Virus record (IMG/VR): IMGVR_UViG_2585427776_000015
Coordinates: 1 to 8,058 of that record
Origin: a virus
Lineage: Duplodnaviria; Heunggongvirae; Uroviricota; Caudoviricetes
Length of the DNA stretch: 8,058 bases
Reading direction: 5' to 3' (one strand)
The position numbers and the translations under genes were made by a program. The notes below the pieces were generated by a model. The model was not told the origin of the DNA. It was given only the letters and a program-made list of their open reading frames with translations, and did not search any database. Of the stretch, positions 1 to 8,058 are shown one piece after another; the stretch's first letter is position 1; each line of letters starts with the position of its first letter.

Positions 1-544
1 ATGGAAGTCAACAAAAAGCAGCTGGCTGACATTTTCGGTGCGAGTATCCGTACCATTCAGAACTGGCAGGAACAGGGAATGCCCGTTCTGCGAGGCGGTG
101 GCAAGGGTAATGAGGTGCTTTATGACTCTGCCGCCGTTATAAAATGGTATGCCGAAAGGGATGCTGAAATTGAGAACGAAAAGCTGCGCCGGGAGGTTGA
201 AGAACTGCGGCAGTCCAGCGAGGCAGATCTCCAGCCAGGGACTATTGAGTACGAACGCCATCGACTTACGCGTGCGCAGGCCGACGCACAGGAACTGAAG
301 AATGCCAGAGACTCCGCTGAAGTGGTGGAAACCGCATTCTGTACTTTCGTGTTGTCGCGGATCGCAGGTGAAATTGCCAGTATTCTCGACGGGATCCCCC
401 TGTCGGTGCAGCGGCGTTTTCCGGAACTGGAAAACCGACATGTTGATTTCCTGAAACGGGATATCATCAAAGCCATGAACAAAGCAGCCGCGCTGGATGA
501 ACTGATACCTTACCGAAATCGGTACGGATACCGCGAAAGAGCAG

Positions 545-552
<8 letters not shown>
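1..552 (+). CDS. nu1: Phage terminase small subunit, lambda gpNu1-like; last ~10 residues diverge (deletion junction)
   Basis: 183-aa ORF; first ~170 aa (MEVNKKQLADIFGASIRTIQNWQEQGMPV...KAMNKAAALDELIP) match lambda Nu1 as I recall it, including the N-terminal HTH region. The tail (YRNRYGYRERADL) is not Nu1-like. ATG is at window position 1. Confidence 0.8.
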
Positions 553-1748
<1,196 letters not shown>

Positions 1749-1759
1749 TGAGCCGCTGA

Positions 1760-2227
1760 TGCTTGAACCCGCCTATTGCACCACCAGATATTCCGGCAGG
1801 CTTCGTGGCTGTTTTCAACAGTGATGAGGCATCGTGGCATCTCGTTGAAGACCATCGGGGTAAAACGGTTTATGACGTGGCTTCCGGCGACGCGTTATTT
1901 ATTTCTGAACTCGGTCCGTTACCGGAAAATGTTACCTGGTTATCCCCGGAAGGGGAGTTTCAGAAGTGGAACGGCACAGCCTGGGTGAAGGATACGGAAG
2001 CAGAAAAACTGTTCCGGATCCGGGAGGCGGAAGAAACAAAAAACAGCCTGATGCAGGTAGCCAGTGAGCATATTGCGCCGCTTCAGGATGCTGCAGATCT
2101 GGAAATCGCAACGGAGGAAGAAACCTCGTTGCTTGAAGCCTGGAAGAAGTATCGGGTGTTGCTGAATCGTGTTGATACATCAACTGCACCTGATATTGAG
2201 TGGCCCGCAATCCCTGTTATGGAATAA
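1760..2227 (+). pseudogene. tfa: Tail fiber assembly protein (Tfa) C-terminal fragment with no credible native start
   Basis: Translation ...[88 protein letters not shown]...[11 protein letters not shown] matches the C-terminal ~150 aa of lambda Tfa from memory. The frame opens just after a stop at 1757-1759, and the only in-frame start is a TTG at 1763 with no RBS. Confidence 0.75.
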
Positions 2228-2587
2228 TAGTTTTGTGATATGCCGCAGAAACGTTATATGCAATAACGTGCTGCGGTTGGCTGATGTACTTTCGAGAGTG
2301 TATTGAATAATTTCCAACCGTCATTAATTTTATTTATTTTTTGTATGAGAGGATTTGAACCTCCGAGCCTCGACACCTTATGACAACGCGATATTGCCTT
2401 GATGACCGCCATGTGCCAAAATAACCAATTGATAAATAAGTTGATTTTAATTGGTTGGAAGCAAGTCAGGTCAAATTCAGCATTCCGCTCTCTGTATCGG
2501 ATAGTTAAATTTTTCTATAACTGATAGTAATATGTTAAAACTCACACAGATAAATTATCATTGCTCAACAAGTATAATGGAGTTCCC
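2228..2587 (+). promoter_or_regulatory. Non-coding, AT-rich leader and putative promoter region of the McrB-like operon; contains two palindromes
   Basis: 360 bp with no ORF. Interrupted palindrome at 2243-2276 (ccgcagaaacgttat / ataacgtgctgcgg). Inverted repeat AACCAATT (2423-2430) / AATTGGTT (2449-2456) around two direct TTGAT. GGAG at 2579-2582 sits 5 nt before GTG 2588. I cannot place the -35/-10 boxes reliably. Confidence 0.3.
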
Positions 2588-4543
2588 GTGGATACAGCAG
2601 AACATGATGGCAAGTTTGCTTGGGCTAGTTTTTATGAGGCTTTTGCCAACGCGTTACTGACTTGGCGAAATCGTAGAGATGAATTAGTCAAAGGTATTCA
2701 TCTAATTGCCCCGGGTGTGGAAGGAATGTCCCATCTGCAGGACAAATCTATTATGGGAGAGATCTTTCCCTTAAAAGACATTTGTCCGTTTACTACTATG
2801 GGCTTGTTCAATCGTAACTTGACCGACAGCAATCGCAAAATTATTGCTGCCAAGCTAGCGAATTTGTTGGGCGTGAACGAACCGATTCCTGACTCCTTTG
2901 CCGGAATCCCTCTGTTGAATAACCAAAAATCTTGGTTCTTTGGTTATGAAAAGTCACGCGACCCTAATGACATTGAATGCTTGTGGGAAATGTTCTCACA
3001 GGCAATGACCTTTGCGGATAACCAGAATACTAACTCTGCAGACTTCACTGCCGCATATGACATCGCTTCTACAGTAATGAATGTCGGTTGGAATCTCACC
3101 ATGGGGTTGTACTGGACCCGTCCTTGGTTCTACCCCACTTTAGATAGCCAGTCGCAGTATTACATTCAGACAGTGTTAAACATTAAGATCATTAAAAACG
3201 GGGCAAAAGGTCGCTGTAGTGGACAAAGTTACCTGAGTCTTATGCGGGCGCTGAACGAGGTCTTTACCCAACCAAACTATCCGGTTCATTCTTTCCCAGA
3301 ACTTTCCTTATCAGCGTGGAATACAGATCTTAGCCAGTCTAAAGATGAGGTGGCAAATAGAACGTGGAAAGCCTCTTTACTGAATAAAATTAAGGCGTTA
3401 TGCCTGAAAAAAAATGGCCCTTATTTCACTGCTTCGGAGTTGGAAGAAAACTACTTGGACGTTTTCAAGGTAGAGCATCCTGAGAGCAAAACTGTTACAA
3501 GCTCAATCTACTTTTATCTACAGAAACTATGCAATGATGATGAGTTAAAGTCCCTCGAGTCCGGAAATTATGAATACCTGAATTTTGAGAAAAACGAATC
3601 CCAGACGATAACTGAGGAAACTGTCGAAGAGAGTGCGCTGTCGCCAAAACTCACCCACGTTCCTTATGACATCAGTCATCTGGTGCAGGATGGCTGTTTC
3701 TTGGAAGAGGCTAAGATCCAACTCACACTTCAGCGCCTGATCGACAAGAAAAACCTGATATTACAAGGACCACCCGGAACTGGAAAAACTTGGTTAGCGC
3801 GACGTCTGGCGTACTGCTTGATGGGAGAAAAAGCACCTGAGCGTATTAGCGCGGTGCAATTTCACCCGAACCTCTCTTACGAAGACTTTATTCGCGGCTG
3901 GCGTCCAGGTAAAGAAGGGCAATTGACGCTAATTGATGGACCTTTTGTAAATGCAATCAAAACTGCAGTCAATAATCCTACCTCGAAATATGTGGTGATA
4001 ATTGAAGAGATTAATCGTGGCAATCCGGCGCAAATCTTCGGTGAAACACTCACGTTGATGGAAGCAGATAAACGCACGCCGACTGAGGCATTATCTCTTT
4101 CCTATCCTAAAAATGCTGATGAAAAAATATACATTCCTGAGAATCTATATATCATCGGTACGATGAATATTGCAGACCGCTCACTCGCACTACTTGACCT
4201 AGCGCTGCGCCGTCGTTTCGCGTTTATCGATCTAAAGCCAGCTTTTAATGACGCGTGGAGAAACTGGGTAAATTATAATTACGCAATTGATTTTGACATG
4301 TTAGCATTCATCAAATCTCGACTGACGGTATTAAACGATATGCTGGCAAAAGATGTTACCTTAGGACCACAGTTTTGTATCGGTCACAGCTATGTCACCC
4401 CAGCTATCGGCCAAAAAATCAACGATGCCCAGGCTTGGTATGAACAAGTCGTTGATACAGAGATCTGCCCTTTGCTCGCCGAATATTGGTTCGATGCTCC
4501 AAATAAAGTCGATGAAGCCAGAAAAGTGTTATTAGCAAAATGA
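2588..4543 (+). CDS. McrB-family AAA+ GTPase with an N-terminal ~380-390 aa region of unknown family (Type IV restriction motor / specificity subunit homolog)
   Basis: C-terminal ~270 aa carry Walker A GPPGTGKT (3766-3789), Walker B-like VVIIEEINR (3993-4019), the McrB signature MNxxDRS (MNIADRS, 4163-4183) and RRRF, and align throughout with E. coli McrB from memory (ILQGPPGVGKTFVARRLAY..., YIIGLMNTADRSLAVVDYALRRRF). The N-terminal region shows no similarity I can recognise. The open frame begins at TTG 2561 (no RBS); GTG 2588 is preferred because of the GGAG 5 nt upstream; the first in-frame ATG is about codon 56. Confidence 0.85.
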   Translation: MDTAEHDGKFAWASFYEAFANALLTWRNRRDELVKGIHLIAPGVEGMSHLQDKSIMGEIFPLKDICPFTTMGLFNRNLTDSNRKIIAAKLANLLGVNEPIPDSFAGIPLLNNQKSWFFGYEKSRDPNDIECLWEMFSQAMTFADNQNTNSADFTAAYDIASTVMNVGWNLTMGLYWTRPWFYPTLDSQSQYYIQTVLNIKIIKNGAKGRCSGQSYLSLMRALNEVFTQPNYPVHSFPELSLSAWNTDLSQSKDEVANRTWKASLLNKIKALCLKKNGPYFTASELEENYLDVFKVEHPESKTVTSSIYFYLQKLCNDDELKSLESGNYEYLNFEKNESQTITEETVEESALSPKLTHVPYDISHLVQDGCFLEEAKIQLTLQRLIDKKNLILQGPPGTGKTWLARRLAYCLMGEKAPERISAVQFHPNLSYEDFIRGWRPGKEGQLTLIDGPFVNAIKTAVNNPTSKYVVIIEEINRGNPAQIFGETLTLMEADKRTPTEALSLSYPKNADEKIYIPENLYIIGTMNIADRSLALLDLALRRRFAFIDLKPAFNDAWRNWVNYNYAIDFDMLAFIKSRLTVLNDMLAKDVTLGPQFCIGHSYVTPAIGQKINDAQAWYEQVVDTEICPLLAEYWFDAPNKVDEARKVLLAK

Positions 4544-5661
4544 CGACAATAACCGGGAGTGAGCAACATACAGCATCACGTATTCCCATGCGAAATATCT
4601 GGATGCTGATGCTGTACGCTTCAGATCTGTTTCGCCAGTTAGGGCGCAATCAGATCGCAGTAGAAGATAACCCAGCAGAAATCCCCGACCTGGTGGCGAC
4701 AATCCTCCTTCATGAGATTACGCTGCGCCGACGTCGCAATTTAAATATGGGATACCAAACTTGTCATGCGGCCCTGAACCGGGTGAGAGGGCGCATTGAC
4801 ATACTGTATACTGCCAGTCATCAACTGCTGGAACGGGGACAGGTTGCCTGCCATTTTCAAGACATAACCCTCAACACCCCCCGAAATCGCTATGTTCGCT
4901 GTGCGTTAGAACGTCTGGCCTCAATCATAGTGAAACCGTCTTTGGCGGCAGATTGCCATTTTATGGCAATATCACTTCGCCGTGAGGGGATAAATGGAGG
5001 ATATCCTGCCCCCCACGAATTACCCTCAGTGTGGCGTTTTGGACGCCATGATGCCGCAGATAAACCGATGGTCGATGCCGCACGATTAGCTTTTGAACTG
5101 CTGATGCCGACCGAAGATCAAGGCCAATATCTTTTACCTGCGCCCTCAAATAACCTTTACTGGATGAGAAGACTATTTGAAAAAGGTATCGCTGGCTTAT
5201 ATCGTGTACACCTTGACAAAACAACTTGGCAGGTCTCTGCAGGGAAAGAGCTGAAATGGGCGTTGAGCGATCAAAGTGCAGGTAGTGCAGAGATTTTCCC
5301 GACAATGAAGTCAGACATTATTCTGGAACACAAGACTGCCCAGCGGCGTATTATTATCGATACCAAATTTAATTCGATTCTGACAAAGGGTTGGCATCGG
5401 GAGCAATCACTACGTAATGGCTATATTTATCAGCTATATACCTACCTTAGAACACAGGAGAACAAGACGGATCCGCTTTCGCTCAATGCCGCTGGTCTTC
5501 TACTTCATCCAGCTGTTGGCTATATGCTTAATGAGTATGTTGTCACTCAGGGACATAAGATCCATTTTGCTACAGTAGATATGACGGTAGATGCTAAAGC
5601 AATTAAAAAACAATTGCTGGCAATAGCCCATGATTGTGCAGGAGTCGCGGTTGATGACTAA
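4540..5661 (+). CDS. McrC-family PD-(D/E)xK endonuclease subunit (373 aa), translationally coupled to the McrB-like gene
   Basis: Start ATG overlaps the upstream stop (ATGA at 4540-4543). N-terminus IPMRNIWMLMLYAS resembles E. coli McrC IPVRNIYYMLTYAW. Nuclease core SDIILEHK...RRIIIDTKFNS (D259 at 5314-5316; D274-T-K276 at 5359-5367) parallels McrC ETDITI...ILIVDAKYY. The following NGYIYQLYTYL resembles McrC QNLYQLMNYL. Confidence 0.85.
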   Translation: MTTITGSEQHTASRIPMRNIWMLMLYASDLFRQLGRNQIAVEDNPAEIPDLVATILLHEITLRRRRNLNMGYQTCHAALNRVRGRIDILYTASHQLLERGQVACHFQDITLNTPRNRYVRCALERLASIIVKPSLAADCHFMAISLRREGINGGYPAPHELPSVWRFGRHDAADKPMVDAARLAFELLMPTEDQGQYLLPAPSNNLYWMRRLFEKGIAGLYRVHLDKTTWQVSAGKELKWALSDQSAGSAEIFPTMKSDIILEHKTAQRRIIIDTKFNSILTKGWHREQSLRNGYIYQLYTYLRTQENKTDPLSLNAAGLLLHPAVGYMLNEYVVTQGHKIHFATVDMTVDAKAIKKQLLAIAHDCAGVAVDD

Positions 5662-6017
5662 CCATCCTATAGGGCACTGGCTGTAATATAATCAATAGTT
5701 TCAATTAAGTAGCTGTTATCCGTGCTTAGTCATCATATGACGCACCACGGTCTAATTTTCCTGCTCATACATTGATATATCCTTGTCGTGCCCGGAAAGT
5801 CGCAGTCCACTATGAGGTATACCGATTGCCAGCACCAAAAGCTTCTTTGTGATTATTATATCGGGGAATGCCTATTTTTTTAGTGACAATATCAGATAGC
5901 AATTAATAAGCGGTGCCGGTAATGGATGTTATGTTTAATGTATAGACACAGCCATCATAAACTAAACGTCTGTTGTTCGCTCATAACCGACATTTATCTC
6001 AGTTATGGAGGATAATT

Positions 6018-6098
6018 ATGTATGCAGATAATGGGGCAGACAGTCGTGGAGTAAACAAGGTTTTGCACTGCTTGGCGGCATCGTTATCTTATTTTTAA
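6018..6098 (+). CDS. Hypothetical 26-aa small protein (MYADNGADSRGVNKVLHCLAASLSYF), speculative
   Basis: Consensus Shine-Dalgarno GGAGG (6007-6011) sits 6 nt upstream of the ATG, inside otherwise ORF-free AT-rich DNA. The C-terminal half is hydrophobic. There is no homology evidence; the call rests on the RBS only. Confidence 0.2.
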   Translation: MYADNGADSRGVNKVLHCLAASLSYF

Positions 6099-6141
6099 TT
6101 ATGTGCCTCTTAACATAAGTTGGGACAAAACAGAGACACAT

Positions 6142-6173
6142 AAGGTCTCACAAAGGTCTGCAAGGCCTCACAT
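6142..6173. repeat. Three tandem imperfect ~10-bp direct repeats (AAGGTCTCACA / AAGGTCTGCA / AGGCCTCACA)
   Basis: Read directly from the sequence at 6142-6152, 6153-6162 and 6163-6172. Spacing is one helical turn, as expected for an iterated protein-binding site. Confidence 0.5.
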
Positions 6174-6361
6174 GTATTGAGATGTTAATAAAATGTAGAC
6201 TTGTAATTTGGATATAAATGGTAGAGAAAACCTTTCCCCAAAATAAAAACGAACGTCAATGAAATCAAACGGTTGAATAAAGTTAATTTTGGCTAATAAA
6301 AAGACAATAAAATAATTTTTATCATTAAATATCAATGACTTGAATTCATGGTTTTTATATA

Positions 6362-6526
6362 CTGCTGCGCCATATGGGTTGGACTGAAGCGGCTGACCTG
6401 ATTGTTAAAGGTATGGAAGGCGCAATCAATGCCAAGACCGTAACTTATGACTTCGAACGTCTGATGGAAGGCGCTAAGCTGCTGAAATGTTCAGAGTTTG
6501 GTGAAGCGATCATCGAAAACATGTAA
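6362..6526 (+). pseudogene. icdC: icd 3' fragment: last 54 codons of isocitrate dehydrogenase plus stop, the duplicated attachment region (icdC-like)
   Basis: In-frame translation [54 protein letters not shown] matches the Icd C-terminus from memory. Homology begins abruptly at 6362, after AT-rich non-icd DNA. 165 bp, no start codon and no upstream icd sequence. Confidence 0.85.
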
Positions 6527-6549
6527 TCTCTCCATGTGTTAAATATTGA

Positions 6550-6581
6550 AACGGGCGTATAACACGCCCGTTGTTTTATTT
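6550..6581 (+). terminator. Rho-independent terminator downstream of the icd 3' fragment
   Basis: 9-bp GC-rich stem (6550-6558 / 6564-6572, aacgggcgt..acgcccgtt) with a 5-nt loop, followed by a T-rich run (gttttattta), 24 nt after the icd stop. Confidence 0.6.
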
Positions 6582-6628
6582 ATGTGGATATTATTAATAG
6601 CATATCGAGCATATTTATATGAAGCCCA

Positions 6629-6952
6629 TTACTTGAGCCCATATGGGCATATTTTTATAATGCAACTATTATGTAAACATTTATTTGTTATTTTGCTTTC
6701 TCCTGGAGGACACTCTTGACTGCTTTTGAGTAAACTCCATAAATCCTTGTTGAATGGTGCGATGTGATAAATAGTAATAGGATATTCTTTATCCTTAAGG
6801 ATAATACCAGACTTAACCGGTGTAAATATACTGCCAGGAGGGAGAAATATAGTAGATTGATACCAGATGATCATTTTCATATTACCCCATATGGCTGAAA
6901 AAGATATACCACATGTAGGTTGAATTACCGTGTCAATTACTATCCACTTCAT
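6629..6952 (-). CDS. iraM: Anti-adaptor protein IraM-like (RssB inhibitor that stabilises RpoS), 107 aa
   Basis: 107-aa [46 protein letters not shown]... matches IraM (YcgW) in length and N-terminus as I recall it. Position and orientation, immediately after icdC and on the opposite strand, match the E. coli K-12 order icdC-iraM-ycgX. AT-rich gene with a long AT-rich upstream region. Confidence 0.7.
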
Positions 6953-7029
6953 TTGTTATGTCTTATCCCACGGTATTTAATATGGTTCATTAGGATGTTT
7001 ATTTCTTGATTTTGCATATGAGTATATTA

Positions 7030-7039
7030 CCCCCCCCCC
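7030..7039. repeat. C10 homopolymer followed by an A7 run, in the iraM-like upstream region
   Basis: Read directly: attaCCCCCCCCCCtcAAAAAAAt. It lies 78-87 bp upstream of the iraM-like start codon on the opposite strand. Confidence 0.9.
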
Positions 7040-7415
7040 TCAAAAAAATAAATTAATTAAAATGATGGCTTATATAAAATAAAATTTAAAGCAAGGAATC
7101 TCAATGGATGTTAAACAAAATGAGATTTTGTGAAAGCAATAAATTATTGACTTCGTTTTAGATTTGTTTAGCTATAATGTTATACATTCAAATGACTGAA
7201 CATCCTGTAATTAAAACATAGCCTTTATGCTACTTTGTGCCAATTTGCTAAACATTATGGTTGCCTTTTTATATAACGATAATAATGAATATAAGCATGA
7301 CATGAGAATAAGGTTTCAATTTTTGAGTTATATAGGAATGATTTAACCTGTTCCTGGCTAAAATACATATAACCGGATGATGACTAAACCAAAATACATG
7401 TGCGTTAAGTATTGA

Positions 7416-7447
7416 AACGGACGTGTGGCACGGCCGTTGTTTTTATA
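7416..7447 (+). terminator. Second, degenerate copy of the icd-terminator element: hairpin plus T-run with no + strand gene upstream
   Basis: Stem 7416-7425 / 7429-7438 (aacggacgtg..cacggccgtt, one mismatch) followed by gtttttata. The flanks (catgtgcgttaagtattgaaacgg...) are homologous to 6536-6585 (catgtgttaaatattgaaacgg...). Confidence 0.35.
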
Positions 7448-7653
7448 AATATGTTAACCGTTATAAAATAACGTATCAAAAGTCAAGTGATCACATTTCA
7501 AATATCAAGTTGATAGTATTAGTCTGGTGATTATTTATGGGTGACAATAAAAAGACAGTATTAATCATCCATAGAGATAGTCTCTGCACTTTTATTTCCA
7601 TTATGCTAATGCCTTACTGAATTATGAAGCATTTCTTAAGTATCCAACTTTAG

Positions 7654-8058
7654 CTAGATTAATGGTTTATTATTTTCTACATCTTCAATATATAAAAGCG
7701 TATTATCAATGGCGTAGTAACTGCGTTTGTTATGATTAACATCAGTAACCCACCGGAAAACGCCCGCGCCTGCCAGTGTTGAACAGTATTCCCGAAATGT
7801 AGATTTTCCGCAAATATGAAGCAATGCGGCCTCTTTTATTTTAGCAGGGTTCTTGGTCGTACTAACTTTTAACAGGTTCCTGGTTCCTCTTAATAACAAA
7901 ACCGTATCATCGTGAGTAATAATTCTGATGTTATCCGTAGCCAGATAATAAATGTAATGTGCAATACGGTGATGTTTTAATTCTGAATAAAACCAGGAGA
8001 AGTTTTGCTCTTTTCTCACTTGCTCAAACATCTTTTGAAAAACAACGACCTGATCCAT
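7654..8058 (-). CDS. ycgX: DUF1398-family protein, YcgX-like (134 aa); start codon at the window edge
   Basis: 134-aa ORF MDQVVVFQKMFEQVRKEQNFSWFYSELKHHRIAHYIYYLATDN...AGAGVFRWVTDV... resembles the E. coli YcgX/YbcV/YdfO (DUF1398) family as I recall it. The position next to iraM matches the K-12 order. ATG occupies 8056-8058, so the true start may lie beyond the window. Confidence 0.5.
   Translation of the reverse strand: MDQVVVFQKMFEQVRKEQNFSWFYSELKHHRIAHYIYYLATDNIRIITHDDTVLLLRGTRNLLKVSTTKNPAKIKEAALLHICGKSTFREYCSTLAGAGVFRWVTDVNHNKRSYYAIDNTLLYIEDVENNKPLI

Follow-up and report, generated by a model that had tools for sequence, protein, structure and literature searches.

A second, decaying copy of the icd terminator beyond iraM: probable trace of an e14-type element integrated in icd

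iraM and the two terminator copies that bracket it

IraM is an anti-adaptor that stabilises RpoS in Escherichia coli and stands under PhoP control. Its gene lies in the stretch of DNA considered here, positions 1 to 8,058 of IMG/VR virus record IMGVR_UViG_2585427776_000015 (hereafter the window, 8,058 nucleotides), which is E. coli chromosome with 99.9% identity to strain Z1323CEC0018. Within the window, iraM is bracketed by two copies of a sequence resembling the terminator of icd. The second copy is probably the displaced and decaying icd terminator; it would mark the right-hand limit of an e14-type element, now degraded, that bore iraM.

From left to right on the plus strand, the region begins with a displaced 3′ fragment of icd (6359–6526), an icdC-like pseudogene comprising the last ~55 codons and the stop and forming the attR side of the prophage now present. 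The fragment is annotated as an incomplete isocitrate/isopropylmalate dehydrogenase lacking its N-terminus (open reading frame [ORF] 6374–6526) and shares 92–94% identity with icd 3′ ends elsewhere. The first-pass annotation had assigned the stop before the first copy to icd; it belongs to this fragment, the whole gene not being in the window. Copy 1 (T1; 6535–6577, plus strand), the icd terminator, follows, with a hairpin at 6550–6572 and a T-run, identified from the repeat, a terminator scan, and folding. The cassette body (6578–7400, minus strand), delimited by annotation and by the empty-site sequences described below, holds iraM (6629–6952), its upstream region with a poly-C tract, and the small gene ymgK (7211–7255), both annotated on the minus strand. 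Copy 2 (T2; 7401–7443, plus strand), the putative decayed relic, retains a hairpin remnant at 7416–7438, with an A·G mismatch, and a T-run. It is succeeded by the right flank R (7444–7493, plus strand), which is common to cassette-bearing and empty-site genomes, and by two conserved neighbours beyond the cassette that are known from annotation, ymgL (7491–7601, minus strand) and ycgX (7654–8058, minus strand; Pfam DUF1398). As iraM, ymgK, ymgL, and ycgX all lie on the minus strand, copy 2 has no plus-strand gene upstream of it, as the first-pass annotation had remarked. The proteins of ymgK and ymgL have been detected in K-12 (PMC6001520).

The two copies form a direct repeat of 43 nucleotides (nt) with 84% identity (36/43) at a spacing of 866 bp, and six of their seven differences are transitions. 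When the copy-1 region was aligned locally with the remainder of the window, the score was 53, compared with 21.2 ± 2.3 for 300 dinucleotide shuffles, i.e., ~14 standard deviations above. The likeness covers the T-run and ~15 nt on the 5′ side of the stem (GTTAA[A/G]TATTGAA), so that the homology claimed on first inspection reaches beyond the hairpin. Both copies are a hairpin with a T-run, the DNA around them is AT-rich, and a short repeat present in just two copies is often fortuitous; even so, likeness by chance, or as generic terminators, is hardly credible in view of the alignment score, the identity 5′ of the stem, the absence of the cassette exactly between the copies in 1036 genomes, and the existence, in other lineages, of copy-2 variants nearly identical to copy 1.

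Two other origins of the repeat were considered and rejected. A target-site duplication made by a transposon or insertion sequence (IS) was ruled out, as the repeat is 43 nt long and 84% identical and the cassette has neither transposase nor terminal inverted repeats; real IS insertions at the locus, namely IS10 in the copy-2 loop and IS200 after the T-run, look quite different. A dispersed repeat akin to repetitive extragenic palindromes or bacterial interspersed mosaic elements was also ruled out, as the inspected matches in Escherichia, Shigella, and Citrobacter all lie directly after an icd 3′ end. Copy-2-type sequence was found solely in the iraM context.

The copies differ in how well they fold. 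Copy 1 has the G+C-rich stem-loop and U-run of an intrinsic terminator and is more stable than its composition would predict: a 9-bp stem with six G-C pairs closes a 5-nt loop and is followed by GTTTTATTT, and 64 nt around it fold at −23.3 kcal/mol (z = −5.0), with none of 200 shuffles equally stable. Copy 1 also lies ~55 nt past the iraM stop on the minus strand and may act in both directions. In copy 2, the stem is broken by the internal A·G mismatch into 5 + 4 bp with a 3-nt loop, the U-run being kept; its fold of −13.7 kcal/mol is equalled by 79 of 200 shuffles (z = −0.2), and the consensus terminator scan recovered only a 5-bp version. The initial statement that each copy can form a GC-rich hairpin therefore holds for copy 1 and only weakly for copy 2.

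The icd terminator on chromosomes and icd-targeting phages

In Citrobacter amalonaticus, the 26-nt hairpin of copy 1 stands after the native icd, the 3′ end of which is only 82% identical to that of the window; the hairpin also follows icd in prophage-free and in empty-site E. coli. Copy 1 is thus the normal icd terminator of Escherichia and Citrobacter. In prophages that use icd as their integration site, a replacement icd 3′ end is followed by a copy of the terminator and then by integrase arm sites. For example, phage-21-type prophages (E. coli MA11, O157:H7, E. albertii, and phage 21 itself) have copy 1 in exact form, then TTCCCCAAAAC repeats and int, and e14-type elements carry copy 1 or the covarying hairpin AACGGGAGCGTAATGCTTCCGTT, followed by TTATCAAAA repeats. 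Both arm families recur among 82 distinct post-icd sequences from IMG/VR viral contigs. Across these 82 variants, the outer stem AACGGG/CCCGTT is kept and the inner stem covaries by host (GAGCC...GGCTC, GAACC...GGTTC, GCGT...ACGC), compensatory pairing having been judged by eye and by minimum free energy (MFE); for 92 distinct 62-nt post-icd stretches, the MFE ranges from −16.0 to −28.8 kcal/mol. Since the hairpin stands after native, prophage-free, and phage-borne icd ends alike, it is identified as the icd terminator, copied by icd-targeting phages. In K-12, the primary icd 3′ end reported by Term-seq in supplementary file 1 of the study lies at the e14-borne homologue of the hairpin, at 1196422/3 (PMC7815308), which marks that homologue as the working terminator of icd there. 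Copy 1 itself follows a pseudogene fragment both in K-12 and in the window.

Icd-targeting prophages across the Enterobacteriaceae (loci L139–L252 of our comparison) show at least three arm-site families, TTATCAAAA, TTCCCCAAAAC, and TCTGCAAAAC, each of which carries a host-matched icd 3′ end and terminator; this set offers ready data on how attP-borne gene ends track their hosts. In Shigella flexneri SFBU0723, three copies of the icd 3′ end with terminator lie within ~90 kb around the record start (L034, L087, L098), two with the iraM-type flank and one with the e14-type arm, suggesting tandem or duplicated elements at icd. A scan of species-representative genomes with the pattern AACGGNCGNNNNNNNCGNCCGTTGTT returned mostly chance matches in G+C-rich genomes; among the matches listed were ~10 useful loci and no attR side from E. 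albertii.

Measured against the post-icd hairpins, copy 2 shows the signs of decay. All of its counterparts share TTAAGTATTG at a position where every icd-adjacent copy has A. In KE55, copy 2 (AACGGGCGTATGGCACGCCCGTT) has an intact stem and two loop changes; the S. flexneri copy (AACGGGCGTATGGCACACCCGTT) has one mismatch, as has the counterpart in a longer island described below (AACGGGCATATAACACGCCCGTT); and in the window and K-12-type copy (AACGGACGTGTGGCACGGCCGTT) both partners of one pair have changed to A·G, in addition to loop changes. These stem lesions are uncompensated, and three of the four lineages compared are stem-broken. For 62-nt stretches containing copy 2, the folding energy is −13.7 kcal/mol in the window and −11.4 kcal/mol in S. 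flexneri, both outside the post-icd range. Different uncompensated lesions together with weak folds are as expected of a terminator released from its job.

Retention of copy 2 for a function of its own, either as terminator of a minus-strand ycgX-ymgL transcript that would shield the iraM promoter or as the 3′ end of an unannotated plus-strand RNA, appears improbable; on that view, its descent from a duplication would matter less than its role today. Copy 2 does lie ~50 nt past the ymgL stop on the minus strand, its outer stem AACGG/CCGTT and T-run are kept in all variants compared, ymgL and ymgK are expressed as proteins in K-12, and at empty sites a single terminator between convergent icd and ymgL-ycgX may serve both strands. 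Against this stand the stem-breaking substitutions in three of four lineages and the folds themselves, as copy 2 behaves like its shuffles on the plus strand and folds weakly on the minus strand (−10.5 kcal/mol, z = −1.5), where its U-tract (UUUCAAUACUU) is poor. Moreover, no 3′ end near either copy, at K-12 12115xx–12125xx, is among the Term-seq ends listed for a few growth conditions (PMC7815308).

A longer island and the gain or loss of the cassette

A longer form of the island was met through a search for YcgX homologues. This 6.5-kb form occurs in 19 complete genomes. At its left end, icd and the copy-1 hairpin are followed by GTCTTTTGTTAGCCTGCTAACGGTTATCAAAATTTTATCAAAAC, an e14-type left junction with integrase arm sites (GGTTATCAAAATTTTATCAAAAC) that match e14-type attL regions. 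Such arm sites are absent after copy 1 in the window. The interior contains, in order, an ORF of 455 amino acids, an IS5 fragment, trkG, an iraM homologue with 82% nucleotide identity to that of the window, and a ymgB/ariR-like gene. The right end consists of gctATCAAGAATATGTtAA, a spacer, the hairpin AACGGGCATATAACACGCCCGTT, an R-like flank, ymgL, and ycgX. Before this right-hand copy, ATCAAGAATATGT matches the last icd codons (ATCATCAAGAATATGTAA), a remnant of ~15 nt; when the icd 3′ end was compared by BLAST with the right end of the same island, 77.6% identity was found over 67 nt (E = 1e-8). An e14-type insertion in icd should leave just such a pattern: to the left, a working gene end supplied by the phage and followed by arm sites, and to the right, the old icd end, cut short, with its terminator. 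Coding sequence of icd at both repeat ends, as expected of the two ends of a prophage in icd, was found only outside the lineage of the window, in the form of this truncated relic.

The short and long alleles can be compared over most of the region. Window positions 7405–8058 share 80.8% identity with the long-island counterpart, and the alleles differ by 18% in iraM and by 18% in the flank from R to ycgX. Because island and flank have diverged together, one ancient insertion is favoured over two independent ones, and the G shared by the right-hand copies in TTAAGTATTG also points to one insertion. The homology reaches within ~10 nt of copy 2 on its left side, with moderate significance (p = 0.01). 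Judged by its sequence, the short cassette looks like a further-reduced long island: the icd remnant and the ymgB-like gene are missing, as are the ~4.8 kb that extend from the arm sites to trkG. For the loss of the remnant in the window lineage, a global alignment suggested a 29-nt deletion, and a local alignment favours a difference of ~225 nt.

The presence of the cassette was surveyed in 5426 complete E. coli genomes. It is carried by 3849 of them (at least 80% coverage of window 6300–7700), and 1036 have an empty site, in which the icd 3′ end and one terminator with the copy-1 hairpin are joined directly to the sequence downstream of copy 2 (TATAAATATGTTAACCGTTATAAAATAACG...), i.e., R, followed by ymgL and ycgX. 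Exactly 866 bp are absent, corresponding to the cassette body plus copy 2. iraM is thereby shown to be there or missing precisely within the bounds of the repeat, a comparison that the first-pass annotation had put forward. The empty-site genomes include the type strain ATCC 11775, and CFT073 is reported to lack iraM (PMC4045071). The other configurations inspected had IS insertions or, behind a phage-21-type prophage, had lost the region entirely. The contrary case, a genome without iraM that keeps both copies, was not found among the handful of configurations inspected individually, which cover part of the ~520 genomes that fall into none of the three main classes.

The flank from R to ycgX (557–615 bp) differs by 2.6–3.6% between cassette-bearing and empty genomes, about the diversity seen among cassette-bearing ones, and both are 18–19% from the long allele. 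In a neighbour-joining tree of the flank, the empty alleles form one clade (87% bootstrap) that is sister to the cassette-bearing alleles (57%). A single loss event would suffice to account for the empty clade, the direction being unproven by the tree. For the empty-site genomes, loss of the cassette is favoured over primary absence with some confidence, and the direct repeats probably mediated its precise loss in about a fifth of E. coli genomes. At the TTAAGTATTG position, the empty-site terminator has the copy-1 state, which would follow from recombination between the repeats with retention of the left copy.

An alternative takes the empty site as ancestral: the cassette would have been inserted at the terminator itself, by crossover in the shared CCGTTGTTTT, and its own diverged terminator-like sequence would have become copy 2. 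The single empty-site copy does combine the body of copy 1 with the flank to the right of copy 2, as a 3′-end crossover predicts, and an icd–terminator–DUF1398 gene order without iraM is found in Citrobacter sp. and other genera, where it is the older state of the family. We nevertheless regard this alternative as unlikely. The arm sites and icd remnant of the long island put the boundary of the duplication inside icd and not at the terminator, and no copy-2-type hairpin was found on phages or viral contigs outside the iraM context, the matches being prophage calls that run into the host iraM flank. In addition, the known icd-targeting integrases reportedly cross over inside icd. e14 and phage 21 cross over within icd, near window 6360–6380, and copy 2 is not an att core. 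The first-pass annotation had offered an old icd 3′ end or an att core as the origin of copy 2; the former is retained and the latter abandoned.

The preferred reading, in which copy 2 is a displaced icd terminator marking the right-hand boundary of a degraded e14-type element, can be set out as a series of events whose order we infer. An e14-type temperate element carrying iraM would have integrated into the icd 3′ end in an E. coli ancestor, whereupon its replacement icd 3′ end and terminator would have become the working end of the gene (the copy-1 lineage), and the resident 3′ end and terminator would have been shifted to the far (attR) end to give copy 2. The element would then have decayed, losing its integrase and phage genes and, by deletion, the displaced icd fragment, so that most strains would keep an 866-bp cassette with iraM, its promoter region, and ymgK between the terminator copies. 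Copy 1 would still be selected as a terminator, and copy 2, no longer ending icd, would gather mutations. In the window strain, a newer prophage has entered icd once more, so that copy 1 and the icd fragment are now displaced in turn. An earlier integration at icd as the source of the iraM interval, suspected from the start, gains support from the repeat itself, the presence/absence polymorphism, the long island with its arm sites and icd remnant, and the carriage by phages of both the terminator and relatives of iraM; the single origin of the short and long islands and the loss of the cassette at empty sites remain presumptive parts of the scheme.

Several points weigh against this reading. 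Neither the short cassette nor the long island contains an integrase, an excisionase, or structural phage genes, and the 455-amino-acid ORF had no relative in viral contigs and no match in Pfam or PADLOC. The term e14-type element is drawn from arm-site-like repeats and architecture and is thus putative. Upstream of copy 2 in the window, local alignment with shuffles detected no similarity to icd coding sequence (p ~0.95), and the link between icd and copy 2 depends on the long allele being homologous; at ~18% divergence, that allele could stem from an independent integration of a related element. In the flank tree, the clades are sister and not nested, and the direction, loss or gain, is a matter of interpretation. 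Finally, the site comparison is without the closest outgroups, E. albertii, E. fergusonii, and the cryptic Escherichia clades.

Outgroups were sought through homologues of YcgX and BluR. By this route the icd–ycgX interval was obtained from one Citrobacter sp. only, which has one terminator and an IS200 remnant; the YcgX relative of E. albertii is a prophage paralogue, that of Escherichia sp. E10V10 lies at another locus, and bluR of C. freundii is not beside icd.

Several rearrangements were observed at the terminators themselves. At an empty-site locus (L280, 487–512), the loop of the terminator is flipped (AACGGGCGTGTTATACGCCCGTT, which reads as the reverse complement of the ordinary hairpin), the flanks being unchanged. 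An IS200-family element lies right after the T-run of the icd terminator in E. coli RIVM_C037791 (L280, 490–1225) and in Citrobacter sp. (L265, 6600–7160), with an identical junction in both (cccgtttttt followed by gtgcacagaaaa); the 3′ edge of the terminator looks like a preferred IS200 target. In another strain, an IS10-like element (ISVsa5) occupies the copy-2 loop (L004, 7060–8400) with a 9-bp target duplication (CGTGTGGCA); this strain also has IS2 in ycgX and more IS copies in bluR.

The resident prophage, relatives of IraM, and older scars at icd

The left part of the window (1–6358, plus strand) is the right part of a defective lambdoid/e14-like prophage, recognised from Pfam matches and from the RefSeq annotation of the identical region in Z1323CEC0018. 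Similarity to prophage-free genomes begins only at ~6360–6368. This heavily deleted prophage is the most recent integration in icd. It contains Nu1 (1–552), a portal fragment (1098–1748), a tail-fibre assembly gene (1763–2227), an AAA_5 ATPase gene (2561–4543), and an overlapping McrC-family gene (4540–5661). The last two form a McrBC-like restriction pair as cargo, in the place where e14 of K-12 has pin and mcrA. An Rfam scan of the whole window found IS009 (RF02111) at 1986–2184, within the tail-fibre assembly gene (220.9 bits, E = 7.5e-55), and a sub-threshold snoRNA match, with nothing at copy 1 or copy 2.

The relatives of IraM that were found are all from Escherichia. Diverged members (55–73% amino acid identity) occur in lambdoid and Shiga toxin 2 (Stx2) prophages, between Q or stx2AB and nanS-p or lysis genes and on the opposite strand, a placement that is typical of phage cargo. 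In many Stx2 phages, an IraM-family gene, mostly unannotated, lies directly downstream of stx2AB on the opposite strand (e.g., phage 2851, L130 3501–3827; L256–L258). The iraM gene has been described as acquired horizontally and loosely placed "on e14" (PMC4045071); it lies outside annotated e14, and the present findings correct that statement.

Upstream of iraM, ~80 nt from its start, a run of 10 C (7030–7039) precedes TCAAAAAAA. The run has 3, 4, 8, 9, or 10 C among the compared loci and 8, 9, or 10 between near-identical alleles, which could reflect slipped-strand variation in the iraM promoter region or homopolymer sequencing error.

An older layer may exist beyond copy 2. In local alignment, R (7451–7493) scored 32 against e14-type arms, compared with a null of 16 ± 3 (p ~0.0005–0.001), and showed no similarity to the phage-21-type arm (p = 0.46). 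It contains three degenerate TTATCAAAA units at a spacing matching that of the e14-type arm. YcgX-family genes are phage cargo in E. albertii. Copy 2, R, ymgL, and ycgX may therefore be what remains of the left end of an e14-type element older still, or else e14 may have taken up this piece of the chromosome. Tentatively, and with more doubt than confidence, the DNA downstream of icd might be viewed as at least three generations of phage scars, namely the present prophage, the iraM cassette with copy 1, and the relic made up of copy 2, the arm remnant, ymgL, and the phage-type gene ycgX.

That e14 and phage 21 integrate in icd and supply a substitute 3′ end is textbook knowledge, as is the icdC pseudogene. 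The iraM cassette resembles the icdC/attR arrangement of K-12 e14 in its target gene, in the phage-supplied icd 3′ end and terminator, and in the displacement of the resident end; the window itself holds such a displaced set at 6359–6577. Unlike icdC, copy 2 stems from a much older event, its icd coding part is gone in this lineage, the 866 bp to which the element has shrunk are without int and xis, and its hairpin is decaying. With the repeats of tRNA or gene 3′ ends that flank genomic islands, the cassette shares an imperfect direct target repeat, an island present or absent between the copies, and the possibility of precise loss. In contrast to those systems, copy 2 consists only of a non-coding terminator without the crossover core, and the cargo is one domesticated regulator. 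Another comparison is offered by IraL (potB island, uropathogenic E. coli CFT073) and the IraM-like genes of Stx and lambdoid prophages, which likewise belong to PF11183, are PmrD-like, and form small, oppositely oriented cargo of mobile DNA; unlike iraM, they lie in a phage late region or another island, not beside icd, and have no terminator repeats. In a literature search of incomplete coverage, no paper was found on the terminator repeats that bracket iraM, on its exact presence/absence polymorphism, or on the long island.

The process at work is a known one, a degraded integrated element marked by the duplicated 3′ end of its target, and the locus is a tidy case of it that overturns nothing in current understanding. 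Within that frame, iraM would gain a concrete origin as cargo of an e14-type element integrated in icd, which would explain its clean absence from about a fifth of E. coli genomes, including B2 strains like CFT073 and the type strain. The comparison also makes clear that phages targeting icd bring along its terminator in addition to its 3′ end, and it provides a natural pair of one terminator with one copy under selection and one probably released from it. If the more tentative stack of scars is real, iraM is a cassette that can be precisely deleted via its flanking repeats and whose expression the poly-C tract may switch. Repeated integration at icd would then have built part of the stress and biofilm regulatory neighbourhood of E. 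coli.

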